DNA of 64,000 bases. Source: Flammeovirgaceae bacterium. GTDB taxonomy: Bacteria > Bacteroidota > Bacteroidia > Cytophagales > Flammeovirgaceae. Below the pieces are notes generated by a model. The model searched no databases and was not told the origin of the DNA. It saw only the letters and a program-made list of their open reading frames with translations. Both the position numbers and the translations under genes were made by a program. Below are positions 45,964 to 63,851 of the stretch, one piece after another. The stretch is taken from positions 1,324,416-1,388,415 of the forward strand of contig CBDDBK010000002.1 of NCBI GenBank assembly GCA_965225715.1, in the 5' to 3' direction. Each line of letters opens with the position of its first letter. The stretch's first letter is position 1.

Positions 45964-46208
45964 AAGGTTATGTTAAATTTAATATTAAAAAAATAAAATG
46001 AGTTGTATATAAAGGTTTTTTGTTTTTATTTTGAGGAATGACTTCCTTTTGTAATTCATTATAGTTCATTATTTTAAATAACACACTATCCAAAAAAAGT
46101 TAGATAAAATAGGCTGGAATAAATTTCTTTTCAAAGTAAAGAATTTGGCGATGTACCAGAGTAAGGTTTCCTCTTTTGAATACACCGCCAAGCTAAATTT
46201 TTTGTTTC

Positions 46209-48293
46209 TCAGTCTATGACCCGAAATACACTGACCCCATCATCATTAAACCCAGCTACAAAAAGATAGGTATTTCCTTCAATAACAGCCGTAGACACAT
46301 CGGCAATTCCATCCAATTCTAAAGTGGCATTATCGGAGACATTGTAAATAGAGGTTAAGGTGCCATCAGAAGCGACCGAAAATACACTGACCCCATTATC
46401 ACTAAATCCAGCTACAAAAAGATAGGTGCTTTCTCCAACAACTGCTGTAGATACACTGTAAGCCCCATTCAATTCTAAATCAGCATCGTCAGAGACATCA
46501 TCAACCGAGGTTAACGTTCCGTCAGCAGCGACTGAAAACACACTGAAGCCATCATCAATATTCCCAGCTACAAAAAGATAGGTGCTTCCTCCAACAACTG
46601 CTGTAGATACAGCGAAAGCCCCATCCAATTCTAAATCAGCATCGTCGGAGACATCATCAACCGAGGTTAAAGTTCCATCGGAAGTAATCGAAAATACACT
46701 GACGCCATCATCATTACGCCCAGCCACAAAAAGATAGGTGTTTCCCCCAACAACTGCCGTAGATAAACCAATAGCCCCATCCAATTCTAAAGCGGCATTA
46801 TCAGAGACAGTGTCAACCGAGGTTAAAGTTCCATCAGCAGCGACCGAAAATACACTGACCCCATCATCTAACTCTCCAGTTACAAAAAGATAGGTTGTTC
46901 CTCCAACAACTGCTGTAGATAAACCACTGGCTCCATCCAATTCTAAATCGGCATTGTCAGAGACATCGTCAACCGAGGTTAAGGTTCCATCGGCAGCGAC
47001 CGAAAATACACTGACGCCATCATCGTCATACCCAGTTACAAAAAGATAGGTTGTTCCTCCAATAACTGCTGTAGATACATCAGCAGCTCCATCCAATTCT
47101 AAAGTGGCATTGTCGGAGACATCGTCAACCGAGGTTAAGGTGCCATCAGAAGCGACCGAAAATACACTGACCCCATCATCATTATACCCAGTTACAAAAA
47201 GATAGGTTGTTCCTCCAACAACTGCTGTAGATAAACCACTGGCTCCATCCAATTCTAAATCGGCATTGTCAGAGACATCGTCAACCGAGAGCAATTGGAA
47301 TGAATCTCGAACCATAATGCTAATAGAAGTTTCAAAACGATTGCCATTTGGATCAAAAACTGCGACTCCCAAATCATAGAGGGCTAAAGTTTCATAATCT
47401 AAGGCATTAGAAACGAGTAAATAACCTGAATTAGAAAGGCTGAAAGCTCCTCCAACATTACCCGAAAACAAAGCATAAGAGGCAATGTCTAAGTCGTCAG
47501 TGGCTACAACTTGACCCGCTGTATCGCCAATAGCACTGAACTCGGATATCGAAAACACACTATTCTTTATGCTCAAATTAGGGACATCAAGGACAGTAAT
47601 GGTAAAAACCATTTGAAAAGTGCCGCCATTGCCATCGTCCGTTTGCACCCGAATAGAATGACTGGCTTGACTTTCAAAATCAAAACGTATGTTGCTTTTT
47701 AGACTATCCCCAGAAATACTAAAATTGGCATTATCATCAGCCCCATCTCCTTCTTGGAAACTATAAGTAAAAGCCTCTGAATCTACGTCTGTGGAATTAA
47801 AAGTTCCTATGAAACTTCCAATGGGTTCATTTTCAGAAATACTATTGGCGCTTAAAGCAATAGATATAGGATTTTCATTGGTATTGCTTACCGTTATGGT
47901 AAAAACCATCTGAAAGGTGCCGCCATTTCCATCGTCCGTTTGCACCCGAATAGAATGACTGGCTTGACCTTCAAAATCGAAACTTATGTTGCTTTTTAGA
48001 CTATCGCCAGAAATACTAAAATTGGCATTATCACTAGACCCATCCCCTTCTTGGAAACTATAGGTAAAAGCCTCTGAATCCGCATCTGTGGAACTAAAAG
48101 TTCCTATCAAACTTCCAACGGGTTCATTTTCAGAAATACTATCGGCACTTATAGCTAAAGCTGTTGGAGGTGAATTCGTTTCAGATGGAGGCTCTACCAC
48201 AGGGCTATCGTCACATTTTCCTGCAATGGTTAAAATAAAAAGAACCAAAGCCCCATAAACATAGCTTTGGATTTTTGAAAACTTTGCATTCAT
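46209..48293 (-). CDS. Surface lipoprotein paralog C: 3 cadherin-like domains + 7-bladed beta-propeller
   Basis: Same architecture. It shares variant blocks (QEGDGADDNANFSISGD, TVLDVPNLSIKN) with paralog D rather than with A or B. Confidence 0.8.
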   Translation of the reverse strand: MNAKFSKIQSYVYGALVLFILTIAGKCDDSPVVEPPSETNSPPTALAISADSISENEPVGSLIGTFSSTDADSEAFTYSFQEGDGSSDNANFSISGDSLKSNISFDFEGQASHSIRVQTDDGNGGTFQMVFTITVSNTNENPISIALSANSISENEPIGSFIGTFNSTDVDSEAFTYSFQEGDGADDNANFSISGDSLKSNIRFDFESQASHSIRVQTDDGNGGTFQMVFTITVLDVPNLSIKNSVFSISEFSAIGDTAGQVVATDDLDIASYALFSGNVGGAFSLSNSGYLLVSNALDYETLALYDLGVAVFDPNGNRFETSISIMVRDSFQLLSVDDVSDNADLELDGASGLSTAVVGGTTYLFVTGYNDDGVSVFSVASDGTLTSVDDVSDNATLELDGAADVSTAVIGGTTYLFVTGYDDDGVSVFSVAADGTLTSVDDVSDNADLELDGASGLSTAVVGGTTYLFVTGELDDGVSVFSVAADGTLTSVDTVSDNAALELDGAIGLSTAVVGGNTYLFVAGRNDDGVSVFSITSDGTLTSVDDVSDDADLELDGAFAVSTAVVGGSTYLFVAGNIDDGFSVFSVAADGTLTSVDDVSDDADLELNGAYSVSTAVVGESTYLFVAGFSDNGVSVFSVASDGTLTSIYNVSDNATLELDGIADVSTAVIEGNTYLFVAGFNDDGVSVFRVID

Positions 48294-48538
48294 AAGGTTC
48301 TATTAAATTTAATATTAAAAAAATAAAATGAGTTGTATATAAAGGTTTTTTGTTTTTATTTTGAGGAATGACTTCCTTTTGTAATTCATTATAGTTCATT
48401 ATTTTAAATAACACACTATCCAAAAAAAGTTAGATAAAATAGGCTGGAATAAATTTCTTTTCAAAGTAAAGAATTTGGCGATGTACCAGAGTAAGGTTTC
48501 CTCTTTTGAATACACCGCCAAGCTAAATTTTTTGTTTC

Positions 48539-50623
48539 TTAGTCTATGACCCGAAATACACTAACGCCATCATCAACAAACCCAGTTACAAAAAGATAGG
48601 TGCTTTCCCCAACGACTGCCGTAGATACATCAGCAGCTCCATCCAATTCTAAAGCGGCATTATCGGAGACATTGTAAATAGAGGTTAAGGTGCCATCAGA
48701 AGCGACCGAAAATACACTGACCCCATCATCAAAAAACCCAGCTACAAAAAGATAGGTGCTCCCTCCGACAATTGCCGTAGATACACTGTAAGCCCCATCC
48801 AGTTGTAAAGCGGCATTGTCAGAAACATCATCAACCGAGGTTAAAGTTCCATCAGCAGCGACCGAAAATACACTGACGCCATCATCATCAAATCCAGTCA
48901 CAAAAAGATAGGTGCTTCCTCCAACGACTGCTGTAGATAAACCAAAGGCCCCATCCAATTCTAAAGCGGCATTGTCGGAGACATCGTCAACCGAGGTTAA
49001 AGTTCCATCGGAAGCGACCGAAAATACACTGACGCCATCATCAGTATCCCCAGCTACAAAAAGATAGGTGTTTCCCCCAACAACTGCTGTCGATAAACCA
49101 ATAGCCCCATCCAATTCTAAATCAGCATCGTCGGAGACATCGTCAGCCGAGGTTAAAGTTCCGTCATCAGCAACCGAAAATACGCTGATACCATCATCAT
49201 TAAGTCCAGTCACAAAAAGATAGGTTGTTCCTCCAACAACTGCTGTAGATACAGCGAAAGCCCCATCCAATTCTAAATCGGCATCATCGGAGACGTTGTC
49301 AGCCGAGGTTAAGTTTCCATCGGCAGCGACCGAAAATACGCTGACGCCATCATCAACAAACCCAGCTACAAAAAGATAGGTTGTTCCCTTAACGACTGCT
49401 GTAGATAAACCATTAGCTCCATCCAATTCTAAAGTGGCATTGTCGGAGACATGGTCAGCCGAGGTTAAAGTTCCATCAGAAGCGACCGAAAATACACTGA
49501 CCCCATCATCATCAGACCCAGCTACAAAAAGATAGGTTGTTCCCTCAACGACTGCTGTAGATATAGGGAAAGCCCCATCCAATTCTAAATTGGCATCATC
49601 GGAGACATCGTCAACCGAGAGCAATTGAAATGAATCTCGAACCGTAATGCTAATAGAAGTTTCAGAACGATTGCCATCCAAATCGAAAACCGCCAGCCCC
49701 AAATCATAGAGGGCTAAAGTTTCATAATCTAAGGCATTAGAAACGAGTAAATAACCTGAATTAGAAAGGCTGAAAGCTCCTCCGACATTACCTGAAAATA
49801 AAGCATAAGAGGCAATGTCTAAGTCGTCAGTGGCTACAACTTGACCCACTGTATCGCCAATAGCACTGAACTCGGATATCGAAAACACACTATTCTTTAT
49901 GCTCAAATTAGGGACATCAAGGACAGTAATGGTAAAAACCATTTGAAAAGTGCCGCCATTGCCATCGTCCGTTTGCACCCGAATAGAATGACTGGCTTGA
50001 CCTTCAAAATCAAAACTTATGTTGATTTTTAGACTATCCCCAGAAATACTAAAATTGGCATTATCATCAGCCCCATCTCCTTCTTGGAAACTATAAGTAA
50101 AAGCCTCTGAATCTACGTCTGTGGAATTAAAAGTTCCTATCAAACTTCCAATGGGTTCATTTTCAGAAATACTATTGGCGCTTAACGCAATAGACGTAGG
50201 AGCTTCATTGGTATTGCTTACCGTTATGGTAAAAACCATCTGAAAGGTGCCGCCATTTCCATCATCAGTTTGCACCCGAATAGAATGACTGGCTTGACTT
50301 TCAAAATCAAAACTTATGTTGCTTTTTAAGCTATCGCCAGAAATACTAAAATTGGCATGATCAGTATCGCCTTCACCGGATACTAAACTGTAGGTAAAAG
50401 CCTCTGAATCTACATCGGTGGAACTAAAAGTTCCTATCAAACTTCCAACGGGTTCATTTTCAGAAATACTATTGGCGCTCAAAACAATAGCTGTTGGAGG
50501 TGAATTTGTTTCAGATGGAGGCTCTACCACAGGGCTATCGTCACATTTTCCTGCAATGGTTAAAATAAAAAGAACCAAAGCCCCATAAACATAGCTTTGG
50601 ATTTTTGAAAAGTTTGCATTCAT
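48539..50623 (-). CDS. Surface lipoprotein paralog D: 3 cadherin-like domains + 7-bladed beta-propeller
   Basis: Same architecture, with a unique first-cadherin variant YSLVSGEGDTDHANFSISGD. It is the first gene of the array in the transcription direction. Confidence 0.8.
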   Translation of the reverse strand: MNANFSKIQSYVYGALVLFILTIAGKCDDSPVVEPPSETNSPPTAIVLSANSISENEPVGSLIGTFSSTDVDSEAFTYSLVSGEGDTDHANFSISGDSLKSNISFDFESQASHSIRVQTDDGNGGTFQMVFTITVSNTNEAPTSIALSANSISENEPIGSLIGTFNSTDVDSEAFTYSFQEGDGADDNANFSISGDSLKINISFDFEGQASHSIRVQTDDGNGGTFQMVFTITVLDVPNLSIKNSVFSISEFSAIGDTVGQVVATDDLDIASYALFSGNVGGAFSLSNSGYLLVSNALDYETLALYDLGLAVFDLDGNRSETSISITVRDSFQLLSVDDVSDDANLELDGAFPISTAVVEGTTYLFVAGSDDDGVSVFSVASDGTLTSADHVSDNATLELDGANGLSTAVVKGTTYLFVAGFVDDGVSVFSVAADGNLTSADNVSDDADLELDGAFAVSTAVVGGTTYLFVTGLNDDGISVFSVADDGTLTSADDVSDDADLELDGAIGLSTAVVGGNTYLFVAGDTDDGVSVFSVASDGTLTSVDDVSDNAALELDGAFGLSTAVVGGSTYLFVTGFDDDGVSVFSVAADGTLTSVDDVSDNAALQLDGAYSVSTAIVGGSTYLFVAGFFDDGVSVFSVASDGTLTSIYNVSDNAALELDGAADVSTAVVGESTYLFVTGFVDDGVSVFRVID

Positions 50624-51023: not shown

Positions 51024-54000
51024 TTAATTAACCTCCACCCATTGGCCTTCTGTTTTGGCGTATATGGTATTATCGTACATATCTTCTACTAAAATAGCAG
51101 GTAAATAATAACGCCCTTTAAAACTTGTATTAACTTGAACCCCAAATATTTTTGTTTTGCCTTTGCCGAGTTTAAAATAAGTTAATACCCTGTCGTCTCG
51201 AATGTCTTGATAGTCAAAATTTTGCTTTGATGAGCCAGATGACTTATTTAAACGGGTGTTTAATATTTCCCATCCCGAAGGAAAAATTTGGGTAAGCGCT
51301 AGATTTTGATAAGACTTAAGACCTTTATGGGTAACAGCTATTGCAGCGATTAAATCAGTGCCTGGAGCGACTTTTTTGGGATCTATAGGTTTATTATTAC
51401 TGTCAAAATAAGCGACTTTAATTGCCAGGCCCTGACTAGAAGCTTTATTTAAATTTTCTAACGCTTTGCCTCTTTGGATAATGCGAAGGTAGACGATACC
51501 TTTTCCTTTATTTTTAACATATAATTTTCCTTCAGGAGAAACTGACTGACGTACAATTTGAAAGGTTGAGTTTATATTTTGTACTTGCCCTTTTTCTTTA
51601 AGCTCAACCTGAATATGGGTGTTTGTTTTGGTATTAATAAGAAATTTGGAAGTTGCCAACAAAGCATAAGCCATTTCCTGTGTGTTGAGCCAACGTTCTT
51701 TAGAAAGTGTTTCATTAATGTTGTTTGCCAAGGTGAAAGCCTGTGTTTTATTGCCTAATAGGGTTAATGTTTCTAAAATCATAGCTGATTCTCTCAAAGG
51801 TGTGCTGTAATGATATTCAAAATGCTGAGTAGGCTGTGGACTTTCTGAACTAATATTTTTAATAATGCTTTCGGCTATTGATTTTTGACCTATCAAAGCA
51901 TAAGCAGCTGCCAGTCGCCATTTGGAAAGCGGGTTTTTAGGGTTGGATTCTTTGAATCGATTCATGAGTCCTAAAGGTCTCCCACCAGCCAATGCTAACG
52001 TGAATAAGCGGTAAGCCTGAACAAAATCATCGTTGTAACCGACTTTATTTTTTTGCCATATATTGGCTTGTTGTCTTTGAAATTTTTGCCATTTTTTCAA
52101 AACGCGCTTATTTACTGTGTATCCTTTATTTTTACATTCTATCATGAAATGGCCTGCATAATTGGTTAACCAATAATTGAATTGGCTATTACCTGTCCAT
52201 AAGGTAAAAGCCCCCTCACCTGTCTGAAAAGCAATTATCTTTTTAAGGGCTTCTTTAATATTATTTTCGATCTTAATTTTCTGTTTTTTGTCCAGTTCTA
52301 CCAACTCTCCGACATAAAGTTGAGGAAAGGCTTTGCTGATAGTTTGTTCCAAACAACCATGTGGATAATTGATAAGATAGTTGAGTCGATGTTCGATTTT
52401 GGCAGATTTTAAGGTGCTGAATTCTACAACAGCGCTGTTTGTACCGGCTGTACCAAAGGCCTGTAAATCGTAATTAAACTCTTCACCTACCATTAAAATT
52501 TTATCGTAGAGTTTGGTAGATAGAGGGTTAGGATTGCGACTTTGGATTTCAATTTCATGAGTTGCTTTTCCTTTATTGCTTTCGGCTTCTATATAGATTT
52601 TTCCATGACCTTCTTGCTTCATGACCTCTAAATTAAAATCTATAAACTTATCGCCAATTTCCTGAATATTAATCGTTTTAGAAGCACTACCTTCAAGTTT
52701 TACAACTCCATCTGTTTTTACGTTTATGCGTACATTTCCAAGGTTTGCTTCGGTTGCCAATAAGGAGACGGGCAATTTAACCTTTTCGCCCGGTCCAAGC
52801 ACACGAGGTAAAGACCCTAAAACCATTAAAGGCTGTCGGACAGGGACTGTTTTCTCAGAACTTCCATAACGCGAATCATAGCCTGATACGATCATTGCCC
52901 GAACGGAACCAATATAAGCCGGTAACTTGAACGTATGTTTTTTAGTTTGGTTTTTATCGAGAAAAAAAGGACCTAAATAAATAGCTACTGGCTTGAAACG
53001 ATTTGGTTTAGGTTTTTTATTTTTCTCATAATAATCACTTCCTCCAATTGCTAAAAGCCGATCTATTTGTCCTCCAAAAGCTCCGATAACATCACTATAT
53101 AAATCCCAAGTTTTTACGCCTAAACCTTCTTTAGAATAAAAATAGGACCAAGGATCAGGTGTTTTGTAATTGGTTAAATCTAAAAGACCTTCATCTACTA
53201 TAGCAATAGAATAAGCCATTGCTTGTCCATTTTTTTCCTTAACATTTAAAACAACTTCGCTGGAAGGTTGTAACTCTTGAGGCAATGAAATTTCGGGATA
53301 AAGTTTGGTATTTTCATCTATGACATCTATACCTCTAATGCCATAAAGACGTATAGGTAGATTATTTTCGGTTTGTGCATGAGGCTGAATAAGCGTTGTA
53401 TTAATATAAATATTGGGCGTCATGTCAGCTGTTGCTTTGAGGTTAATTTTGGTGTTGGTTTTTTTGGTATCTACCCAAAATTTATCAATAATTTTAGATC
53501 CATTTTCTATTGATACCAGAGCTTTCCCTACTTGAGTACTCGGAATGAGTAATTCTATATTTTCTCCGACTTTATATGATTTTTTATCAGTTTCTATACT
53601 TAGAAAAGCAGAACCCAATCCTTTTTTGCTTTTAGATGCCCAGCCCGGCCAGTCCATATAGATGACTTTCCCAGAACAGTGCCCGCCTTCATCACAAACT
53701 TTGACATAGTAGCGTCCCCAATCGGGATAATTAATCTTAAAATCAACTGATCCAAGACCATTAATGGTAGAAACTTTAGAGGTGAAAACCTTTTTGCGAA
53801 GTTCCGAACCTACGTAATTAGCTTTGTTGTTTGATTGATCCCACCACCATTTCCATGTCATTTTATAAACAGTTACCGAAATATTTTTTCGATTAACTTT
53901 TTGTCCATCAGTGTTTAGAGTAACTATATTGATTTTGTGATTTTTATCGGTCAAAAGCATACCTCTACTGTCGCCTTCGGGCAGGGTTAAACCGACATAA

Positions 54001-56543
54001 GTACGGTAAGGATAGTAAGGAATAGAAAAACGAGCTATGCTGAAATTGCCGCCCCGCTCAAAAACTTTACCACTAATAATGGCTTTCAAAAAACCAGATG
54101 CTCTATTTAACTTACCCAACTTGCTCATTTTGTAGTTAATAGATGCTTTTCCGCTAGGGTCTAAGGTACTTTCAAAGATTGTTTGAGGCTTGAAATCAAA
54201 ATTTTTGGAGAAGTCGGTAAAAATATAGTTGCTATAGCCTTTAAATAGAGTAGGGGAGGGTACCAGTTGAAGGTCAAACTTGGCTTTTAATCCTCCAGCC
54301 TCGACTCCTGTCAACCATTTTGTTTTTAGTTCTGCTTTAAGATTTAAATCTGAGGCGCTGAGATAGGTTTTTTCAAAAGTCATTTCGCTTTTTAAGCGGT
54401 TAGGTCTTATTGTCTCTACTTTTAAAGATTTTTGAAAAACAGTTTGACCTATGCGGATGCTGGCTTTCCAAACTCCTGTTAAATCTTCAGATTCAGTTGG
54501 AAGGTTAAAAGCGTACATGCTTTTTGCATTGTGTTGGGTGTTTAATTTTACTTTTAAGTTGCCTAAAGGGTCAGTAAGTTCTACAACGATAGGATGTCCG
54601 AGGGGTAAACGCTTTTCTTTGTCTTCTAAAAGAAGGGTCAAATGAATAGTATCACCGGGTCGCCAAACGCCTCTTTCGCCATAAATAAATCCTTTTAGTC
54701 CTTCTTTAATGGCTAAACCAGCAACATCAAAATTGCTTAAGGACAAAGACGAGCCATCGTCTAAGCGCAAATAAGCGTATTGCCCATTTTTTTTAACAAC
54801 AGCTAAAAAAGGTTTAATTTCTGTTTTTAAAGTTATAAAACCTTCAGAGTCACTCTGACCACTTGCTAGAGGTTGAAGTTGGAAATCTAATAATTCCACA
54901 TGTGCCTTTTCTTCGGGTTCAGCATTTAATAAATTGGTAACGATGAGATTAATATTTCGATCGTTCCCGATTTTAGCAATCAAACCTAAATCCGAAGCGA
55001 TGATATTTTGAGCTACTTTACGTTTTGACGTGTAATAAGACACATGACAAGGGTTTTTTCTTTCTTTCCATTTATAGCCTTCAGGAACATAATAGTTATC
55101 CCAATATGAATATTCAGAATAGTCGTCTTTCCATTCTTTTTTTAAATACAAATCCTGATTATCAACAAATTCAGCTTCGTCATCGCAAGGGTAGAGAGAT
55201 TGGTGTTGACGAAAAGATAATTCAACTCGGTAGATAGCACCTTTAGATTGGGTGATTAGGGTGTTTAAATCCAAATAAAAGCGATTCCAATTTTGAAGAT
55301 CGGTATGACCAAATGTTTCTAGAGAAATGGTTTTTTTAACAACATCTTTACCTACCCGTTTCATCTGTTTGCTGCCAGAAAGTCTATTATTTTGAAGAAA
55401 TTGAGGTACATTGGTATCGAAGATTTTAATAATCGTAACGTCCACTGATTTTAAGTTAACCGCTTCGAAAGGCAAAACAATACCTTTTTTTGAAGAAGGT
55501 AGAATCGTTCCTTTACCCACAAATTTTAGGGCTGGTTTTTCGGGTGTAAACCTCAAATCTTGACGGTGAGTTGTTTGATAAACTCGATTGCTTTTACTTT
55601 TTATGCCTTCATGAACAGTTAGTTTTTTCTTACCTACAATGGGACGACCCAAGTAGACCTTAATTTCGTTTTTATCTATTTCGAAGGTTAAATTTTTGTT
55701 GTTTTCAACTTCTATTAAGCCTTGTAAGTTTTGGTTTGGATCTAAAGGGTCGGAAAAAGTAATGGATATATATTTGGCGGGTTCGGAAATAAATTTAGCG
55801 GAGAGTAAAGTAAAAGTTTTGGAGGAAACAACCTTAATTCTATCTTTTATTAACTTGTCTATTCCAATGAATTTACCATTAATTTTATAACTAACATATC
55901 GATCTTTTTCTTTATCTCTTTGAATGTTGCTGACGGTAAAATAATGACTTTCTTCTTGGTGTTCCCAAACGATCTCTACGGGAAAATTGCTTTTAGGCTG
56001 GTTTAATGACAGCATTTTTTCGATTGATTCATTGGAGACTTTATCAGCAGTGAGCAATTTTCCACTAAGCTCATTATCTTGATTATTTTCGCCAAAACGC
56101 AAGGGTTCGAAGGAAACGCTAAAATCTTGTTTTAAAGTTTCAAAAGCAAAATCAAAAATGGTTAAGGGCTTTTTTATGTCCCAAAAAAGTTTTTTTAAAT
56201 GCAGTTCAGCCGAATAATAGACTCCATTTTCCAAAGGCTGGGCTGGAGTGAAAATAAGTGTTCTATTGTTAAATTTTTTTAATTCTCCATCTATATTTGG
56301 TGAAAAGGTCAATACTTTAGAACTTAAATAGTCTTCGTTTTCTGGAAGGTCTTTATTGAGTTCTACAATAATTTCGGATTGATTTGAAATCGTTCCTGTG
56401 GTGTACGAAGCGATATAATTCAAAAAATCCCGATCCTGATTCAAAATTTTTGCTTTCTGCTGGTTTAGATCTTTTTTGCCACAAGAAAACAAGATTAAAA
56501 GAATTAAAAAAGGTAGTTTGTTGAGCATATTTTGAGGGGACAT
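51024..56543 (-). CDS. Bacterial alpha-2-macroglobulin family lipoprotein with thioester motif
   Basis: 1839 aa. Lipobox ILLILFSCGKK, MG-domain-rich layout, and thioester motif YPHGCLEQ (GCLEQ encoded at complement 52344-52358). Confidence 0.9.
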   Translation of the reverse strand: MSPQNMLNKLPFLILLILFSCGKKDLNQQKAKILNQDRDFLNYIASYTTGTISNQSEIIVELNKDLPENEDYLSSKVLTFSPNIDGELKKFNNRTLIFTPAQPLENGVYYSAELHLKKLFWDIKKPLTIFDFAFETLKQDFSVSFEPLRFGENNQDNELSGKLLTADKVSNESIEKMLSLNQPKSNFPVEIVWEHQEESHYFTVSNIQRDKEKDRYVSYKINGKFIGIDKLIKDRIKVVSSKTFTLLSAKFISEPAKYISITFSDPLDPNQNLQGLIEVENNKNLTFEIDKNEIKVYLGRPIVGKKKLTVHEGIKSKSNRVYQTTHRQDLRFTPEKPALKFVGKGTILPSSKKGIVLPFEAVNLKSVDVTIIKIFDTNVPQFLQNNRLSGSKQMKRVGKDVVKKTISLETFGHTDLQNWNRFYLDLNTLITQSKGAIYRVELSFRQHQSLYPCDDEAEFVDNQDLYLKKEWKDDYSEYSYWDNYYVPEGYKWKERKNPCHVSYYTSKRKVAQNIIASDLGLIAKIGNDRNINLIVTNLLNAEPEEKAHVELLDFQLQPLASGQSDSEGFITLKTEIKPFLAVVKKNGQYAYLRLDDGSSLSLSNFDVAGLAIKEGLKGFIYGERGVWRPGDTIHLTLLLEDKEKRLPLGHPIVVELTDPLGNLKVKLNTQHNAKSMYAFNLPTESEDLTGVWKASIRIGQTVFQKSLKVETIRPNRLKSEMTFEKTYLSASDLNLKAELKTKWLTGVEAGGLKAKFDLQLVPSPTLFKGYSNYIFTDFSKNFDFKPQTIFESTLDPSGKASINYKMSKLGKLNRASGFLKAIISGKVFERGGNFSIARFSIPYYPYRTYVGLTLPEGDSRGMLLTDKNHKINIVTLNTDGQKVNRKNISVTVYKMTWKWWWDQSNNKANYVGSELRKKVFTSKVSTINGLGSVDFKINYPDWGRYYVKVCDEGGHCSGKVIYMDWPGWASKSKKGLGSAFLSIETDKKSYKVGENIELLIPSTQVGKALVSIENGSKIIDKFWVDTKKTNTKINLKATADMTPNIYINTTLIQPHAQTENNLPIRLYGIRGIDVIDENTKLYPEISLPQELQPSSEVVLNVKEKNGQAMAYSIAIVDEGLLDLTNYKTPDPWSYFYSKEGLGVKTWDLYSDVIGAFGGQIDRLLAIGGSDYYEKNKKPKPNRFKPVAIYLGPFFLDKNQTKKHTFKLPAYIGSVRAMIVSGYDSRYGSSEKTVPVRQPLMVLGSLPRVLGPGEKVKLPVSLLATEANLGNVRINVKTDGVVKLEGSASKTINIQEIGDKFIDFNLEVMKQEGHGKIYIEAESNKGKATHEIEIQSRNPNPLSTKLYDKILMVGEEFNYDLQAFGTAGTNSAVVEFSTLKSAKIEHRLNYLINYPHGCLEQTISKAFPQLYVGELVELDKKQKIKIENNIKEALKKIIAFQTGEGAFTLWTGNSQFNYWLTNYAGHFMIECKNKGYTVNKRVLKKWQKFQRQQANIWQKNKVGYNDDFVQAYRLFTLALAGGRPLGLMNRFKESNPKNPLSKWRLAAAYALIGQKSIAESIIKNISSESPQPTQHFEYHYSTPLRESAMILETLTLLGNKTQAFTLANNINETLSKERWLNTQEMAYALLATSKFLINTKTNTHIQVELKEKGQVQNINSTFQIVRQSVSPEGKLYVKNKGKGIVYLRIIQRGKALENLNKASSQGLAIKVAYFDSNNKPIDPKKVAPGTDLIAAIAVTHKGLKSYQNLALTQIFPSGWEILNTRLNKSSGSSKQNFDYQDIRDDRVLTYFKLGKGKTKIFGVQVNTSFKGRYYLPAILVEDMYDNTIYAKTEGQWVEVN

Positions 56544-56680: not shown

Positions 56681-57280
56681 TTAGATATGAGGTTTAATAC
56701 TAAAATCAAATATCTTTTCTAAGTTAAACTCAAGGTCTTGAAACAAGAATGATTTTAACCGTTCATCTTCAGAAAACGATTTTGCTACATAGTATTTGCC
56801 TTCTTGATTCAAAGAATGGAGGATAACTAACTTTTCAATTGGATAAACTATCCAATATTCTTTTATTTTAGCTTCTTGGTAAAGGTAAAACTTATCGTGA
56901 AGGTCTGTTTTTGAATTATTTGGAGATAAAATTTCCACTACCAGATCGGGGGCTCCGATGGCGCCTCTTATGTCTATTTTGCTGTCATCACAAATCACAC
57001 ATAGATCAGGTTGCACGACGGTATGTAACTTATTGCCTTTAGGAATAGGTAAGCGAACATCGAAAGGCGCTGCGAATATTTGACAAGGTCGATCTTCAAG
57101 ACAATATATAAATCGAGATGTTAAGAGTGATGATATTGACTGATGCCGACTTGATGGGGCAGCCATCTTAAAAATTTTGCCTTTGAGCAACTCTACGCGC
57201 TCTTCAAATTTCCAAGACAAATAATCCGTATAGGTGTACAGCTTATCAAGATTTAGCTGATTGAATTGAGTAATTTCCAT
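56681..57280 (-). CDS. Uma2 (DUF820) family putative endonuclease, paralog 1
   Basis: YTDYLSWKFEERVELLKGKIFKMAAPSSRHQ, VQPDLCV and GAPDLVVEILSPNNSKTDLHDKFYLYQEAKIKEYWIV match the PD-(D/E)xK Uma2 pattern. Confidence 0.8.
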   Translation of the reverse strand: MEITQFNQLNLDKLYTYTDYLSWKFEERVELLKGKIFKMAAPSSRHQSISSLLTSRFIYCLEDRPCQIFAAPFDVRLPIPKGNKLHTVVQPDLCVICDDSKIDIRGAIGAPDLVVEILSPNNSKTDLHDKFYLYQEAKIKEYWIVYPIEKLVILHSLNQEGKYYVAKSFSEDERLKSFLFQDLEFNLEKIFDFSIKPHI

Positions 57281-57623: not shown

Positions 57624-58160
57624 TCAAGTATTTTTAAAATCATCTTCGGTATATGCACTTGCGCCTTCATCAATGTTACTTTTAGCTATTCTGTAATCTT
57701 TGCCAGTTGTTGCTAGTTTAAAATCAGTGAGTTTACATTGTAAATCAGTAAGCTCGTCGACTTTTCTACTTATTTCACTTACTCCAATTATATTATCCTC
57801 AACTTGTGCTTCAATGTTTTTAGCTTTTTTATACAAATTGAGATAACCGTTGGCTGCTTTTACGTATTCATGCCAAAGGTCTTTATTTTTTGCTTTCAAT
57901 AGGTAAACGCTTATCCCAATTCCGAATAGAGATAACGCTCCAATGGCTATTTGGGAAAAATAAAAGGCAACACTTGATAGGGTTGCTACACTTATTACAA
58001 CTGAAATAATTTCTAAGTTATTGCGTTTAGATTCTAAATTCATTTCCTTGGCTTTAACTCTTTCGGCTGCTGCAAAAAATAAATTTTTTGAATAGGCAAA
58101 ATCCACTCTTAATTCCTGAAGACGCTTGTAAATATTGCTGTTTTTTGCTTCGTTTTCCAT
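57624..58160 (-). CDS. Two-TM effector-like protein (SLATT-like: SMODS and SLOG-associating 2TM)
   Basis: 178 aa: a helical N-terminus, two adjacent TM helices (IISVVISVATLSSVAFYF and IAIGALSLFGIGISVYLL) and a helical C-terminus. It starts 17 nt after the upstream nucleotidyltransferase gene on the same strand. Confidence 0.55.
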   Translation of the reverse strand: MENEAKNSNIYKRLQELRVDFAYSKNLFFAAAERVKAKEMNLESKRNNLEIISVVISVATLSSVAFYFSQIAIGALSLFGIGISVYLLKAKNKDLWHEYVKAANGYLNLYKKAKNIEAQVEDNIIGVSEISRKVDELTDLQCKLTDFKLATTGKDYRIAKSNIDEGASAYTEDDFKNT

Positions 58161-58177
58161 AGGGCATTTAAATTAAT

Positions 58178-58927
58178 TTATTTTGGGAAATCATTTCCAA
58201 ATAGTGTTTCTCTACAGTATTTGCCAAAGGTATCATCAGTCATGATTTTTAATTCTTGTAACTTATTTGAATCAAACCATTTGTAAATTTCAAATAATCT
58301 TGTAACTCCTTGACGATAAGAATCGATAGGTCCAAGTCGTTCTATCGCTAGAATTTCCATTTCAAAAGAGGGGAGTTTTGCCCATTTATTTATTTGTTTA
58401 CATCGTTTCATCATTTTGATTAATGGGACAAGCATTGGATTTTTTTTGTTTGCTTGGGTAAGATATTCTCTAAGCCTGTCTGGGTCTTCAATACATTTCC
58501 AAGCCTTTAAATCAGAGCTTGGAATCTTATAACATTTAACATCTGAAATATCATTTTCTAGTGCTGGTGTAAGCTCAAATTTGCAGTGTTTAAAATCAAG
58601 AACTACGCATGGTTTGTCTTGTCTAATTGCTGTATTGGAATACCTACTACGTAAATCCTTTTTTAACTTGTTGAAAACAGATTGAGGTGTTGGATTATCA
58701 GGTTCATGATATAGATAATCCATGATGACGAAAATATCAACATCATTCATTGGTCTAATTATTGTCTTTCTTTTATATGAACCTGTTAGTATAGTATTCA
58801 TGACATAGTCTAATTTTTGGAGTATATCCTGGCGCAAGTGTTTATGGGAATTAATCACTTTTTTTATCTCATTATCAGTTGGTTCAATAGCTTGTTTGAA
58901 TGTTTCAAACTTGGTTTGTAGACTCAT
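58178..58927 (-). CDS. SMODS/CD-NTase-like minimal nucleotidyltransferase
   Basis: Pol-beta-fold signature TGSYKRKTIIRPMNDVDIFV (GS...DxD, encoded around 58736-58783), a third acidic site in CVVLDFKHCKFELTPAL, then a helical C-terminal half. 249 aa. Confidence 0.6.
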   Translation of the reverse strand: MSLQTKFETFKQAIEPTDNEIKKVINSHKHLRQDILQKLDYVMNTILTGSYKRKTIIRPMNDVDIFVIMDYLYHEPDNPTPQSVFNKLKKDLRSRYSNTAIRQDKPCVVLDFKHCKFELTPALENDISDVKCYKIPSSDLKAWKCIEDPDRLREYLTQANKKNPMLVPLIKMMKRCKQINKWAKLPSFEMEILAIERLGPIDSYRQGVTRLFEIYKWFDSNKLQELKIMTDDTFGKYCRETLFGNDFPK

Positions 58928-59162
58928 GTCTTCAATTTTTTATGCTGTAAGTTTAAATAATGTTTGTAAAAAACTATTTTTCAATGCAAATTTAAAATAA
59001 CACAAAATTACCAAATCTAACCAAAAAAACGATGAAGAGCAACTCAAAAAAAGAGTTAGTTTTTCTTATAATAAAGTGCTACTTTTGCTGATTTGATGTA
59101 ATTTTGATTCAAGTTTTTTATTTAAAAAGTTGATTATAATAGTTTTATAAATTTATAAAAAA

Positions 59163-59438
59163 TCATTCACAGTTCATTGTTTTAGAGACTTTCTGTTTCA
59201 ATGTTTGTTGATTAGCCAACTCATACAGATATTCCGGGGCGAAATCAGCCCCATTTGACCATTCAATTGTGTTGTAGGGAATTGTAAAAGTTTTAAAATA
59301 GGAAACAACTTTTAGGGCTTCAAATACTTTTCCTTTAAGTTCGTATTCAAGATTGACTATTTTATACTTGCCATTGTTGAAATGTAATTCCAACTCATAG
59401 CCTTTGATGTATTTTGCCTTGATAATTTCCAAAAACAT
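59163..59438 (-). CDS. DUF2442 domain protein
   Basis: YELELHFNNGKYKIVNLE...WSNGADFAPEYLYEL. 7-nt gap after the DUF4160 gene. Confidence 0.75.
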   Translation of the reverse strand: MFLEIIKAKYIKGYELELHFNNGKYKIVNLEYELKGKVFEALKVVSYFKTFTIPYNTIEWSNGADFAPEYLYELANQQTLKQKVSKTMNCE

Positions 59439-59445
59439 AATTATA

Positions 59446-59703
59446 TTACTTTAGAGGTTCGATAGAATCTAATTTATCTCCTTTTTGAGCTTTTTGCCAA
59501 GATAGTGTTAATTCTTCGCTATGCAGTTCCAACCAGTCGAATATTAACTTTAAAGCTCTTTTAGGCATCTCACCTTTGACTATGCCTTCTTTTATTGAAA
59601 TACTGATTTTGTATTCTCCATACCATGCATGAAAGTGAGGAGGTGCATGGTCTTTATAATTCATCAAAATTTTTATTCCGTAGAATCTGCTAATTTCTGG
59701 CAT
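59446..59703 (-). CDS. DUF4160 domain protein
   Basis: MPEISRFYGIKILMNYKDHAPPHFHAWYGEYK...LPKRALKLIFDWLELH-type pattern characteristic of DUF4160. Confidence 0.75.
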   Translation of the reverse strand: MPEISRFYGIKILMNYKDHAPPHFHAWYGEYKISISIKEGIVKGEMPKRALKLIFDWLELHSEELTLSWQKAQKGDKLDSIEPLK

Positions 59704-59806
59704 TTTATATCAGTGATTTGTACAAATAAGATAGTTTGTTGAGCATATTTTAGGGGGAACTAGTTTATAAAATAACATAATGATAGTCATATTTTTTGTT
59801 TTTCTT

Positions 59807-60388
59807 CTAAAAATCAAAAATAGTTTTTAGTTCAAATTGAAGCCCTTCAAAAATAACGGATTGAACCTTGTTATCTTCTGTAAATGGCTTTAGGCCAATA
59901 TATTTACCTTCTTTATTTAAAATATAAATAAATAAAGTTTTTTCATAAGGTTGAACAATCCAATATTCTTTTACGCCAACTTCTTCATAGATATTGAATT
60001 TATCATCAAGGTCTCTTTTTGAATTTCCCGGAGACACAATTTCTATAATTAAATCGGGAGCGCCATTTCCTCCGCGTTTATCTATTTTACTTTTATCGCA
60101 AAACACACATAAATCGGGTTGAACAACCGTGTAAGCCTTATTGCCTTTAGGAATAGGCAAGCGAACATCAAAAGGCGCATGGTACACCTCACAAGGGCTA
60201 CCATGCAGTATGTTATCAAGTGCAACTATTAAATTTTTTGAGATTCTTTGATGCCTCGAACTTGGCGCTGCCATTTTGAAAACTTTGCCTTTGATAAGCT
60301 CCACACGCTCTTCAAATTTCCAAGATAAATAATCTGTGTAAGTATACAGCTTGTCAAGGTTCAGCTGATTGAATTGAGTAATTTCCAT
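59807..60388 (-). CDS. Uma2 (DUF820) family putative endonuclease, paralog 2
   Basis: The first 31 residues are identical to paralog 1. GAPDLIIEIVSPGNSKRDLDDKFNIYEEVGVKEYWIV core. Confidence 0.8.
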   Translation of the reverse strand: MEITQFNQLNLDKLYTYTDYLSWKFEERVELIKGKVFKMAAPSSRHQRISKNLIVALDNILHGSPCEVYHAPFDVRLPIPKGNKAYTVVQPDLCVFCDKSKIDKRGGNGAPDLIIEIVSPGNSKRDLDDKFNIYEEVGVKEYWIVQPYEKTLFIYILNKEGKYIGLKPFTEDNKVQSVIFEGLQFELKTIFDF

Positions 60389-60432: not shown

Positions 60433-60930
60433 GAAGTTGTTTACAAATTAATTTGGAAAAATAAAAAAACATGGGCAAATTTGTAAGTATTTAGCTTTTA
60501 AATAGTTATCTAAACAAATTAAGCCCATGTCTATTGTAAAAACAATGATAACACAAAAAGATTTTCAGCCAAAAATTTTACCCCATATTCTGAGTATAAG
60601 GTTGTCTTCAAGAGGTAAAAAATCTAAAATTGGTTCTTATAAACTTTATTGTTATATGCTTTACAAAGCGAAATCAGGCTGTCAATGGAGAATGTTAGCT
60701 ATTGAAAATAAGGAAATTACATAGAATGGAGTGTATTCTACTTTTAGCAGATGGTCTAAGCATAATGTTTTTGAAAAGATTTTCAAGGCTTCTGTAGGCC
60801 ATTTAAAAAGTGATCCTATAGCTGGTCAATTATCTGAAATTAATTTAGATGGCACCCATAGTCTAGCTAAGAATGGTGCTGAAGCAGTAGCTTATCAGAG
60901 GCGTAAAAAAGGCAAAACGACTAACTTATT
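60433..60930 (+). mobile_element. 3'-truncated second copy of the IS at 35539-36429
   Basis: Same left inverted repeat and leader (AGAAGTTGTTTACAAATTAATTTGG...). Homology to copy 1 ends after CTAACTTATT at 60930. The transposase reading frame is split (ORFs 60527-60724 and 60731-60961) by a TAG and a frame change. Confidence 0.75.
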
Positions 60931-61052
60931 AGTGAAAATTAAATATAATTATAATTTTTGATTCCCTAATTTTTAGAAAATTTTAATAAAATAAAAAAAG
61001 CTTTAAAATAAAAATGTATCTTGCTTTTCATAAATAATTTCATTTAATTGAG

Positions 61053-61850
61053 GTGATGGAAGAAACAGCAAGTTTAGAAATTAGAATAATTGGTCAAGCT
61101 GGCAATAAAGAATTAAAGCCGGTGCATTATGATATCAAAGAACTTAGCGCTTTGTTCAAAAGCGTGGGGAGCTTGTTGCGTCCTGACACTAAAAATCAAG
61201 AAACTATAATTTCATACCTTCTTCAAGAGGGTTCTGTCCGAAATACTTTTACAACTTCAAAAAAGCATATAGAAGCTATCCAAAAAATCCTTCTAACCCT
61301 ATTTGCTCAAAAAACTATTGATTTTTTATTAGAAAATGAAGAAAATGAAAAGATAGCTTTAGCTATTGAATCTCTTCAAGAAGAAGCCTATAAGAAAGAA
61401 AGAACTTTTGAGTTAAAAACAAGTTTAGGAATTGATAAAGAGCTTGTTATATCTCCTAAAACAAATTATATAAGACCAGAATCTTACTGGTTCGATTCGG
61501 AATTTTATTTGTATGGCGAATTGCAAAACATTGGAGGGAAAAAAAAATGCAACATTCATATTGGAAGTGATGAATATGGAGATCTTATTGTACAAACTGA
61601 TAAAACGACTATAGAGCATTTAAAAGAGAATCTGTTGTACAAAACGATAGGCATTAGGGCAAGTGGAAAGGAAAATATAAAGGGTGAGTTTAAGAAAAAT
61701 AGTTTAAAACTAATAGAATTTTTGGATTACAATCCGACTTATGACCAAAATTATATCAATCAATGGATTGCCAAAGCAGGAAAACACTGGAAAGGTGTTG
61801 ACCCTGAAAAATGGTTATCTGAATTAAGAGGCGATTATGATGACTTATAG
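61053..61850 (+). CDS. Hypothetical 265-aa protein, translationally coupled to the downstream PIN gene
   Basis: No motif recognised. Its last 14 nt overlap the PIN ORF start. C-terminal ...KHWKGVDPEKWLSELRGDYDDL. Confidence 0.5.
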   Translation: MMEETASLEIRIIGQAGNKELKPVHYDIKELSALFKSVGSLLRPDTKNQETIISYLLQEGSVRNTFTTSKKHIEAIQKILLTLFAQKTIDFLLENEENEKIALAIESLQEEAYKKERTFELKTSLGIDKELVISPKTNYIRPESYWFDSEFYLYGELQNIGGKKKCNIHIGSDEYGDLIVQTDKTTIEHLKENLLYKTIGIRASGKENIKGEFKKNSLKLIEFLDYNPTYDQNYINQWIAKAGKHWKGVDPEKWLSELRGDYDDL

Positions 61851-62334
61851 TGTATTGTTAGACACCAGTTTTCTGATTCATTTTTTTAATAAAGATGCAA
61901 ACTTGCACCAAAATGCGCAAGACTATTTTAAATATTTTCAAGACCACAGTATTAAGATTGTAGTTTCAGCAATTGCCGCATGGGAATATTGTGTGAAAGG
62001 CAAAATAGATGATATTATCACGCCCCAGTTTCAATCCATTGATTTTAGAATGCGCCACGCAAAAGAAGCGGGTTTATTTACCAAAATACTTGAACATAAA
62101 AAAGAACTAAAAGAGCACGAATTATGGGATAGAACATGCGTTAAGAATGATACCCTTTTATTTACCCAAGCGCATGTGAGCAAAAACATTAAATATTTTG
62201 TAACAGCAGATAAAAAATGTCAAAAAAAATATACCATTTTGCAAAATAAAATCAAACTTGATTTTGAAATTTTAGATATTCATATATCCTACAACGTAAA
62301 ATTTGATATTTCTAATTCTACAGACTTATTCTAA
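61837..62334 (+). CDS. PIN-domain nuclease
   Basis: Four spaced acidic residues in PIN-typical contexts: LLDTSFLI (D9), AAWEY (E50), KNDTLLF (D105) and VTADKK (D124). 165 aa. Confidence 0.6.
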   Translation: MMTYSVLLDTSFLIHFFNKDANLHQNAQDYFKYFQDHSIKIVVSAIAAWEYCVKGKIDDIITPQFQSIDFRMRHAKEAGLFTKILEHKKELKEHELWDRTCVKNDTLLFTQAHVSKNIKYFVTADKKCQKKYTILQNKIKLDFEILDIHISYNVKFDISNSTDLF

Positions 62335-63851
62335 ACCTTCACCGCTCCATTAATATTCAAATCAAGCACTTCTAAGTTTTCTAAACCTTCTTTATCAATA
62401 ACTTTAACGGCTATTTGGTGAGCACCAGCCTTAAATTTACAGTTCTGTTTACCTGTTTTGTCAAATAAGATTTGGGGATTAAAACCTTTATTTTCAAAGT
62501 ATTTTAAATCCCATGTAAAGAATTCTATACCGCTTTCGCTTTGGGCTTCTGCTTGAAATTTAACTTCGCGCAAGCCTTTAGCATCTATGCCTAAATCTTC
62601 AAAAGTTAAATGCAGCTTGGGCTTTTGAGCTATGGGCACAATATCAGAAACAGAAAGCAATTCGATGCGTATATTTTCTTTATTTTTTAGACGAGCAACT
62701 TCTTGAATAGCACCTTTTCCAAAACTAAAAGCAATGATATAGCCGATAGGTTTTTCAGATTCGATATTTTGGTCATAGTGTTTTTTATCAAAACGCCGAA
62801 CAGCAGATACAAAATTATCGATAACATTTCTACCGATAGTATCGCTTCGCTTGACTTGAATAGGGGTATTTGTTTTTGTTTTTCCATCAATACCATAATC
62901 GTTTCGTTGTTTAACATTGGGAATAGCATTAAATTGTTCAATTATCCATGTTTCAAACTCAAAAGCAGGTTTATTACGCAAAATATCGTAATCGTATTTA
63001 TGCAGCTGAACGGCAAAAGGTTTCGAATATAAATTGGCGTTTTTTTGTAGCCGTAATTCAGTTACTTTTATGGCTTGTACAGATTGGTCTATACCTATCC
63101 ATTGACGGTTTAGTTTTTCGGCAACAGCTAGGGTTGTTCCGCCTCCGACAAAAGGGTCTAAAATAATGTCGCCCTCGTTGGAACTGGCTTTAATAATGCG
63201 TTCTAAAAGTTTTTCGGGTTTTTGAGTAGGGTAGCCGATGCGCTCATGTTTAGATATTTGCCCACCTGCATGAATATCATACCACCAATCAAAAGGAATT
63301 TTCCCTTGAAGATATTGAGTAAATTCTTTACCTTTAAATTTAATACCTTTCTTTTTAGTTTCTGCATATTTTCTACGTTTTAAAGTAGTTTCGTCATAAG
63401 GTATTAAAATAGATTCTTTATTAAAAATGTATGTATTACTTTTAGAATAGCTATAAATGGTATCGTGTTTTTTTGGAAAATTTTTGCTCACATTTGATGG
63501 TCCATTATAACACCATATAATTTCTCCTCTAAGATTCTTTATCCCAAAAATTTTATCTAAAATATCAACTCGGATATAGGCGTTGGCATGCCAATCACAA
63601 TGTAAATATAATGATCCTGTGGGTTTTAAAAGTCTGTACAGCTCTTCTATACGTTCTTTAAGCCACGCGATATAATGGTCTATTCCTCCAGACCAGCGGT
63701 CTTTAAAAGATCGAATTTCACCCTCATCGCCCCAAATAACTTCATAATTACGGTTACTAAAAAAAGGCGGATCCAAATAAATTAAATCTATAGATTCGCT
63801 GTCTATTTTTTTTAAAATCTCTAAATTGTCTCCAAGGATGAGTTGATTCAT
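62331..63851 (-). CDS. Beta-class DNA methyltransferase fused to an Mrr/PD-(D/E)xK-like nuclease module and a C-terminal Ig/PKD-like domain
   Basis: Motif IV LIYLDPPFF near the N-terminus and motif I ILDPFVGGGTT later (beta-class order). Then FEFETWIIEQF...DYGIDGKTKTNTPIQVKRSDTIGRNVIDNF (Mrr-cat-like D...D-x-K pattern) and a C-terminal beta-rich tail AGAHQIAVKVIDKEG. Confidence 0.75.
   Translation of the reverse strand: MNQLILGDNLEILKKIDSESIDLIYLDPPFFSNRNYEVIWGDEGEIRSFKDRWSGGIDHYIAWLKERIEELYRLLKPTGSLYLHCDWHANAYIRVDILDKIFGIKNLRGEIIWCYNGPSNVSKNFPKKHDTIYSYSKSNTYIFNKESILIPYDETTLKRRKYAETKKKGIKFKGKEFTQYLQGKIPFDWWYDIHAGGQISKHERIGYPTQKPEKLLERIIKASSNEGDIILDPFVGGGTTLAVAEKLNRQWIGIDQSVQAIKVTELRLQKNANLYSKPFAVQLHKYDYDILRNKPAFEFETWIIEQFNAIPNVKQRNDYGIDGKTKTNTPIQVKRSDTIGRNVIDNFVSAVRRFDKKHYDQNIESEKPIGYIIAFSFGKGAIQEVARLKNKENIRIELLSVSDIVPIAQKPKLHLTFEDLGIDAKGLREVKFQAEAQSESGIEFFTWDLKYFENKGFNPQILFDKTGKQNCKFKAGAHQIAVKVIDKEGLENLEVLDLNINGAVKV

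Follow-up and report, generated by a model that had tools for sequence, protein, structure and literature searches.

The question raised by this locus is whether two small adjacent genes of a Flammeovirgaceae bacterium together encode a complete antiphage signalling system, in which a nucleotide synthase is paired with a membrane-acting effector. The genes lie on contig CBDDBK010000002.1 of assembly GCA_965225715.1, within a 64,000-nucleotide (nt) stretch (forward-strand positions 1,324,416 to 1,388,415) that was analysed as a whole and is referred to here as the window. The first gene (58178..58927, minus strand) is an open reading frame (ORF) of 249 amino acids (aa) with an ATG start. An intergenic spacer of 17 nt (58161..58177, minus), which forms the operon junction, separates its stop codon from the ATG start of a 178-aa ORF (57624..58160, minus). 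A preliminary description had noted these two ORFs on one strand with a 17-nt gap; both pairs of coordinates proved exact, and the strand is minus. We consider it very likely, from sequence profiles and structure models, that the operon is a type I cyclic oligonucleotide-based antiphage signalling system (CBASS), comprising a cGAS/DncV-like nucleotidyltransferase (CD-NTase) and a two-transmembrane (2TM) effector of the SLATT_4 family without accessory genes, for which a role in phage defence is predicted. Direct observations of gene structure, family membership, fold, catalytic residues, transmembrane (TM) topology, gene pairing and defence-island context carry this assignment.

The 249-aa protein (hereafter the cyclase) matches the Pfam family SMODS (PF18144) with 98.4 bits against a gathering cut-off (GA) of 26.5 (E=6.7e-28, model positions 1-155 of 164), as well as 33 PADLOC CBASS 'Cyclase' models, the best being PDLC00823 (1.2e-36). 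Its homologues form 52 clusters sharing 45-66% identity over the full length, nearly all of them 248-270 aa, and PF18144 is a precomputed annotation on 52 of the 52. When the family profile was used to search the Protein Data Bank (PDB), CD-NTases were the sole matches, led by Bacillus cereus CdnD (BcCdnD; 9SA4, 1.2e-21) and then Pseudomonas aeruginosa CdnD (PaCdnD; 6P82/6P8U, ~4e-20). The AlphaFold2 (AF2) model (predicted local distance difference test score, pLDDT, 92.3; predicted template modelling score 0.87) retains the nucleotidyltransferase (NTase) core and the six-helix C-terminal bundle, and no TM segment was found in the cyclase. In a Foldseek search with this model, ranks 1-36 are bacterial CD-NTases only (CdnD, CdnB, CdnC, CdnE, CdnG), with PaCdnD at the top (6p8u/6p82/6p8j, E~1e-12, TM-score 0.77-0.80) and human cGAS listed from rank 37. 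The label 'SMODS-like', first given on inspection of the letters, is thus borne out by a Pfam match above the gathering cut-off, by the CBASS cyclase models and by a CD-NTase fold. Judged on profiles and model, the upstream protein is a bona fide CD-NTase, and synthesis of a nucleotide by it is predicted.

Active-site residues could be followed through the family. The pol-beta signature G-S...D-x-D lies in cyclase residues 48-67 (TGSYKRKTIIRPMNDVDIFV), with the G49-S50 and D62-x-D64 codons, which specify the donor-phosphate and Mg2+ ligands, at 58736..58783 (minus). G49, S50, D62 and D64 are invariant across 28 homologues and 13 further relatives, and D62/D64 align with BcCdnD D73/D75 and, in identical numbering, with D62/D64 of PaCdnD. 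PDB entry 6P8J carries a 'D62N/D64N mutant' of PaCdnD in its title. The signature reported in the preliminary description is not only present and invariant but aligned to the PaCdnD catalytic Asp residues. The third acidic site had been placed in the motif VVLDF, and the Asp concerned, D111, does exist, but it is not conserved: some family members have Lys, Gly, His or Glu at this position, and related CBASS cyclases have Thr, Val or Asn, and D111 was rejected as a catalytic residue. E118, in the motif KFELTP (codon 58574..58576, minus), is invariant in the cyclase family. Its counterpart in BcCdnD is D123 (residue 130 of the chain, which is offset by a 7-residue tag), and this Asp coordinates the second Mg2+ ion (Mg-B) in crystal structures (PMC13424991). 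The same position is Asp in all 287-331-aa relatives. We infer from this alignment that E118 is the third catalytic carboxylate, and with it the catalytic set of G49-S50, D62-x-D64 and E118 is complete. The donor-site residues S50, R/K53, K174 and F188 are also conserved, and align with BcCdnD S53, R56, K178 and F194.

The 178-aa protein (the effector) has one hydrophobic block in a Kyte-Doolittle scan, at residues ~48-90 (codons 57891..58019, minus), which holds TM1 (~50-68), a turn and TM2 (~70-88). An AF2 model made with 24 homologues (pLDDT 82) is all helical, with helices at residues 9-65 and 70-89; the TM helices are linked by a turn of 2-4 residues, and three further helices follow the hairpin. 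Scan and model therefore agree with the initial view of two adjacent TM helices with helical flanks. Both flanks of the hairpin are rich in Lys and Arg, and so by the positive-inside rule the N- and C-terminal helical parts would be cytoplasmic. Four PADLOC CBASS '2TM effector' models match the effector near end to end (best PDLC00712, 8.7e-7, 8-168 of 171 positions), and SLATT_4 is its best family in both Pfam and NCBIfam. We see the same affiliation in its relatives, which form 24 clusters at 53-72% identity: SLATT_4 is matched by 24 of the 24, the best at 5.5e-11, which supports the earlier suggestion that the 2TM protein is SLATT-like. A profile search retrieved mostly stand-alone proteins of 170-200 aa. 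One of the effector homologues is from Tenacibaculum maritimum. Invariant Arg, Lys and Tyr residues are R13, R18, R34, Y99, Y106, Y110, K111, K114, K160 and Y170. The window effector lacks 7 residues of the TM1-TM2 loop that are present in most homologues, and the 178-aa loop-deleted form also occurs in the homologue P0063. No nucleotide-sensor domain was recognisable in the effector by Pfam or fold search, just as had been remarked at the outset, and the same holds for SLATT effectors generally.

The pairing of the two genes is conserved. An alignment-based scan of genome contigs for relatives of the cyclase gave 9 loci, where a single-protein scan gave none. We considered a set of 8 related loci (L001, L002, L003, L010, L011, L012, L013 and L014), and in 7 of these a SLATT_4-like 2TM gene stands directly downstream of the cyclase gene, at gaps of 1-7 nt. 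In L010 and L013, with gaps of 3 and 6 nt, the partner is a 185-aa orthologue of the window effector. In L001, L002, L003, L011 and L014 it belongs to a second effector family of 157-171 aa, for which SLATT_4 is the best NCBIfam match (E 1e-8 to 1e-4). The SLATT_4 likeness of these second-family proteins is visible only by family hidden Markov model and NCBIfam, and a phmmer search with the window effector against the ORFs of L001-L009 gave no match. The cyclase sub-clades pair congruently with the two effector sub-families. More distant cyclases of 287-288 aa are paired with S-4TM effectors (in L009 and on a Methylocystis plasmid), and one such cyclase is annotated 'CBASS oligonucleotide cyclase'; the change of partner between S-4TM and SLATT_4 reads as the effector swapping expected of CBASS.

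Because homologues of cyclase and effector exist and adjoin one another in other assemblies, the gene pair is not a product of chance, and because the genes upstream of the cyclase are not conserved among the related loci, the system consists of two genes. Among the window neighbours of the operon there is no gene for Cap2 (E1/E2), Cap3 (JAB), HORMA or Trip13 and no other ancillary gene, which assigns the CBASS to type I, and what defines that type, a CD-NTase with a recognised effector, is found here on one strand with a gap of 17 nt. The proposal of a SMODS and SLATT pair resembling CBASS is in this way supported by profiles, fold and conserved pairing alike. Homologous operons adjoin genes for AbiJ-like proteins and for type I restriction-modification. 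Positions 7270-8036 of L001, and likewise 7270-8036 of L002, probably hold a neighbouring HEPN-MNT toxin-antitoxin module.

The short length of the cyclase, about 250 aa, is a trait of its clade and not a truncation in the source genome. Up to residue 245 the protein aligns colinearly with the 'CBASS oligonucleotide cyclase' of 287 aa from Methylocystis, and members of the compact clade end just after an FGxxFP motif that longer relatives hold internally; in BcCdnD the corresponding SIFGPRFPK stands 36 residues before the C-terminal end. What the compact clade lacks compared to longer relatives is mainly a C-terminal tail and some loops. PADLOC cyclase models go down to 236-261 positions, which puts 249 aa among the shortest lengths known for cyclases, though not beyond them. 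The preliminary description had called the enzyme much smaller than canonical synthetases; small it is, but with such models known and a whole clade of ~250 aa, 'much' overstated the difference. Cyclases of this length were found in Bacteroidota, Campylobacterota (Arcobacter, Halarcobacter), a metagenome-assembled genome of Cloacimonadota, and metagenomes.

A set of Cys and His residues marks the same clade. C107 (~58607-58609), H114/C115 (58583-58588) and C238 (58214-58216), all on the minus strand, vary little or not at all within the ~250-aa clade. Of the four, C107, H114 and C115 are missing from the CBASS cyclase relatives of 287-331 aa, among which C238 recurs only in L008. C107 sits at the position of the acceptor-site S112 of BcCdnD. 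It is possible that C107, H114, C115 and C238 form a metal or redox site. A further reading, which we regard as doubtful, is that the ~250-aa cyclases make up a distinct CD-NTase clade, obligately paired with SLATT_4, reduced to the core, using a Glu as third metal ligand and carrying the invariant P-C107, H114-C115 and C238 set at or near the acceptor pocket. If this were true, the signal could be a hitherto undescribed nucleotide, regulation could run via the Cys/His residues through metal or redox sensing, inhibitory signalling of the kind known from Panoptes could be used, and the pair would offer a minimal system for how a sensor-less SLATT protein reads a nucleotide.

A number of observations weigh against the assignment to type I CBASS. 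The best Pfam match of the effector, SLATT_4 (PF18186), scores 17.1 bits against a GA of 27, and its best NCBIfam match, also SLATT_4 (NF033632), reaches 1.4e-10 and 41.3 bits against a cut-off of 55. On the cyclase side, the NCBIfam equivalog CBASS_cyclase_b (NF041117) gives 127.2 bits against a cut-off of 200 (positions 1-191 of 275). As the effector falls under the SLATT_4 cut-offs and the cyclase under the NCBIfam equivalog cut-off, both proteins are to be regarded as divergent members of their families; with a score below 200 bits, the cyclase was not filed as a CBASS_cyclase_b equivalog and appears instead to belong to a related but distinct compact clade. The effector orthologue in L010 scores 27.0 bits with SLATT_4, which equals the GA, and the low score seems to belong to this one effector sequence and not to the whole family.

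Other such points concern structure, active site and partner. Searches of the PDB by sequence, profile and fold returned no relatives of the effector; chance-level matches, to K+ channel segments, MerF and CdvB2, were dismissed as meaningless. To our knowledge there is neither a solved structure of a SLATT protein nor demonstrated nucleotide binding by one. A 2026 preprint calls SLATT activation an open question (bioRxiv 10.64898/2026.04.29.721553). In the cyclase, E118 is a Glu where the third metal ligand is usually Asp, and the acceptor site has P106-C107 where BcCdnD has R111-S112, so that the product is not readable from homology with confidence. Finally, in L012 there is no 2TM gene downstream of the cyclase.

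The type I CBASS assignment implies a sequence of events. Its trigger and product, the binding of a ligand by SLATT, the formation of a pore and protection from phage are all inferred by analogy with the family. In an uninfected cell the compact CD-NTase would be kept inactive, and phage infection would switch it on by some cue. The two-metal site made up of GS, D62-x-D64 and E118 would then make a cyclic oligonucleotide from NTPs. The best guess for this product, and a weak one, is a cyclic trinucleotide, since the closest solved relatives are of clade D and BcCdnD makes cyclic tri-AMP. In the SLATT_4 protein, the N-terminal helix and the three C-terminal helices would form a cytoplasmic bundle, rich in invariant Arg, Lys and Tyr residues, to which the nucleotide would bind. 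The two-TM hairpins would oligomerise, the inner membrane would be permeabilised or depolarised, and growth arrest or cell death would follow before phage progeny mature, as in abortive infection. The literature on related systems offers precedents for this scheme. Type I CBASS operons mostly combine clade D, E or F cyclases with 2- or 4-TM effectors, and CdnF-SLATT6 operons of this type restrict phage at least 10,000-fold (bioRxiv 10.1101/2023.05.21.541620). SLATT4 and SLATT6 are both listed as CBASS effector classes, and membrane proteins including SLATT4 form the largest effector class, at >40% (PMC12480259).

Among other explanations for the locus, the one that fares best, although we judge it improbable, inverts the logic of the signal. 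As in Panoptes, a nucleotide made constitutively would hold the SLATT effector off, and its depletion by phage sponges or nucleases of the Acb1/Acb2 type would release the effector. Panoptes itself is a precedent, with a minimal mCpol synthase and a 2TM effector of the S-2TM-beta family, and the related effectors OptE and Cap15 have opposite signalling polarity (PMC12657218). The window cyclase, a catalytic core that ends at FGxxFP, has no obvious sensor extension, which is also consistent with a constitutive enzyme. However, the synthase is a CD-NTase and not an mCpol protein, and the effector is SLATT_4 and not S-2TM-beta. CBASS nucleotides, according to the Panoptes paper (PMC12657218), regulate their effectors positively, and the type I operons cited above, SLATT6 included, are described as restricting phage by CBASS (bioRxiv 10.1101/2023.05.21.541620).

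There is still less reason to believe that the SLATT protein is gated directly by the cyclase, through protein contact or covalent nucleotidylation, with no diffusible cyclic nucleotide. An effector with no recognisable nucleotide-sensor domain would fit such direct gating, as would the co-variation of cyclase and effector sub-families and the surface features C107, H114, C115 and C238 that are invariant within the clade. Against this, effectors are swapped in the wider cyclase family, between SLATT_4 sub-families and S-4TM, in a manner typical of a diffusible signal, and the catalytic and donor-site residues show the conservation found in cyclases whose cyclic oligonucleotides are released.

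We give equally little credence to the view that the operon is a decayed or silent remnant, with intact ORFs but no function in the source genome. The deletion of 7 loop residues and the lower SLATT_4 score of the window effector could be signs of decay, and the locus lies amid fragments of insertion sequence (IS) elements and duplicated Uma2 genes. Yet both ORFs are full length and retain all family-invariant residues, and the loop-deleted 178-aa form is shared with P0063. There are also promoter-like motifs upstream. Three TAnnTTTG motifs (58987..59019, minus), which precede the cyclase ATG by 59-84 nt, form a candidate promoter; the intergenic region of 235 nt holds 3 copies of this sequence, which we take to be the Bacteroidota -7 promoter-type consensus, against a background in the window of ~1 per kb on each strand, and the cluster suggests that the operon has its own promoter. 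A sigma-70 promoter scan of the locus did no better than shuffles, a terminator scan of the locus found none, and the window gave no match in Rfam or tRNA scans.

It is scarcely credible that the 249-aa protein is a non-signalling pol-beta NTase (an MNT antitoxin, an aminoglycoside or kanamycin NTase, or a CCA-adding-like enzyme) lying beside a membrane protein by chance: kanamycin NTase also has Glu as its third metal ligand, and there are weak matches to NTP_transf_2 (17.4 bits, under the Pfam GA of 21) and to the archaeal CCA-adding enzyme (29 bits; cut-off 281), but the SMODS score, the 33 CBASS cyclase models, the 36 best PDB fold matches, all to bacterial CD-NTases, the lack of an adjacent HEPN gene and the SLATT_4-like partner kept in 7 related loci speak against it. 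The preliminary description had raised assignment to such a family, with no SLATT match for the 2TM protein, as an outcome that would undo its reading; the profile searches looked for it, assigned no such family to the cyclase and did give a SLATT match, and an MNT- or ANT-type (aminoglycoside NTase) enzyme was rejected on profile and fold results.

The operon forms part of a small defence island, and the chromosome is that of a member of the Bacteroidota. Immediately upstream, across the 235-nt intergenic region, are genes for an 85-aa DUF4160 protein (59446-59703, minus) and a 91-aa DUF2442 protein (59163-59438, minus), a pair without a PADLOC match that does not recur beside the homologous CBASS operons. 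Beyond these on the other side of the second Uma2 gene described below, two short plus-strand ORFs of 65 and 76 aa (60527-60961) with a weak match to DUF4096 (IS4/IS5 transposase N-terminal) are probably what is left of a disrupted IS element next to the island. They are followed by a 265-aa protein (61053-61850, plus) with no Pfam or PADLOC match, whose gene overlaps by 14 nt that of a 165-aa PIN-like protein (61837-62334, plus; PF01850 at 22.6 bits, just under GA); these two genes may form a toxin-antitoxin or defence pair. A 506-aa N6/N4 DNA methyltransferase (62331-63851, minus) matches PADLOC MTase_II at 2e-68 and has a weak C-terminal Mrr_cat-like match, and at the far end of the window there is a 1087-aa Type ISP/IIG-like restriction-modification protein (4469-7732, minus; Type_ISP_C 7.6e-83); both count as additional defence genes of the window.

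Two Uma2 (PF05685) paralogues, at 56681-57280 (minus; PADLOC PDC-S03, E 7e-50) and 59807-60388 (minus; PDC-S03, E 2e-55), flank the CBASS operon and the DUF4160/DUF2442 genes, 3108 nt apart in direct orientation; PDC-S03 is a candidate defence family. They share 73-85% nucleotide identity, highest at their 5' ends. A 35-nt direct repeat with 89% identity was also seen (56506-56540 and 59724-59758), of which the first copy forms the 5' end of an alpha-2-macroglobulin-like gene and the second lies between DUF4160 and the second Uma2 gene. These repeats hint that the ~3.1-kb block of Uma2, DUF4160/DUF2442 and CBASS genes may derive from local duplication or insertion. A mobile cassette with direct-repeat ends was considered, given the Uma2 genes on either side of the operon. 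The alignment shows likeness only inside the Uma2 coding regions and in one 35-nt fragment; the Uma2 repeat looks like paralogy or local duplication rather than defined element ends.

Further from the operon, the window holds four tandem 694-aa ORFs at 41568-50623 (minus), with ~2.3-kb spacing. The first and last of these have a cadherin domain and beta-propeller (lactonase-like) repeats and are mutually 84% identical without gaps; the array reads as a recent tandem expansion of a protein with a probable surface role. Next to the island is a 1839-aa ORF (51024-56543, minus), whose sequence resembles that of a bacterial protein of alpha-2-macroglobulin type. Type IX secretion system sorting domains occur elsewhere in the window, and its GC content is ~32%; together with the Tenacibaculum maritimum homologue of the effector, these features point to the Bacteroidota as the source.

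We finally compared the operon with known systems. Its clearest counterparts in layout are EcCdnF04-SLATT6 and EcCdnF05-SLATT6, which likewise consist of two genes, for a CD-NTase and a small SLATT 2TM protein, with no accessory genes, and which restrict phage strongly and broadly (bioRxiv 10.1101/2023.05.21.541620). The window effector differs in being SLATT_4-like and not SLATT_6, the host is a member of the Bacteroidota and not E. coli, and the closest solved structures to the window cyclase are of clade D, with no clade F reference among those compared. The literature searched yielded no experimental work on SLATT_4 CBASS. The nearest annotated family is that of Methylocystis iwaonis pSS37A-Re-3 (WP_281932723.1 / WP_281932724.1), a CBASS_cyclase_b protein with an S-4TM pore-forming effector. 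The Methylocystis cyclase has 29% identity to the window cyclase and is colinear over residues 2-245, and its operon likewise consists of two genes, in the manner of type I, with a membrane protein as effector. Cyclases of this type share GS, DxD, the third carboxylate, K174, F188 and FGxxFP with the window cyclase, but they are 287-331 aa long, extend 35-80 aa beyond FGxxFP, have Asp for E118 and lack C107/H114/C115; their partner is an S-4TM protein of ~280-310 aa and not a SLATT_4 2TM protein.

By structure the nearest proteins are PaCdnD (6P82/6P8J/6P8U) and BcCdnD (9SA4/9SA5), the best PDB matches in both sequence and fold, with conserved donor-site residues. They have only ~20-30% identity to the window cyclase and are 300-340 aa long, and their acceptor-site and lid residues are different, so the product may differ as well. 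PaCdnD was crystallised with a HORMA protein (6P8U title), and BcCdnD is a cyclic tri-AMP synthase that signals to the Cap4 nuclease, which is not a membrane protein (PMC13424991). Such clade-specific differences in the active site might mean another product or another mode of regulation.

Two systems outside CBASS resemble the operon in part. Panoptes (mCpol OptS and S-2TM-beta OptE) is also a two-gene operon of a minimal synthase and a membrane-disrupting two-TM effector, but its synthase has an mCpol/Cas10 palm instead of a pol-beta CD-NTase fold, its effector has a beta-barrel sensor where SLATT is all helical, and its signalling is constitutive and inhibitory (PMC12657218). Membership of Panoptes was rejected, given a SMODS/CD-NTase synthase and an all-helical SLATT_4 effector. 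DRT10/UG17 also has a SLATT-family 2TM protein as its presumed toxic effector (bioRxiv 10.64898/2026.04.29.721553), but in that system a reverse transcriptase makes tandem-repeat cDNA, the SLATT protein is SLATT_5 and a non-coding RNA takes part, and at the window operon neither a reverse transcriptase nor a non-coding RNA is present (the window Rfam scan being empty).

The preliminary description had put the pair forward as an uncharacterised module. Operons of CD-NTase and SLATT genes are in fact catalogued as type I CBASS (PMC12480259; bioRxiv 10.1101/2023.05.21.541620). The gain in annotation is that two proteins which are unnamed in their database records can be assigned to type I CBASS, as CD-NTase and SLATT_4 effector. 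With a 249-aa cyclase and a 178-aa effector this is about the smallest such system, which makes it handy for structural work on, and reconstitution of, nucleotide reading by SLATT. In short, type I CBASS that pairs a CD-NTase with a SLATT effector is a known kind of system, and the window operon is a divergent member of it rather than a new type of module.

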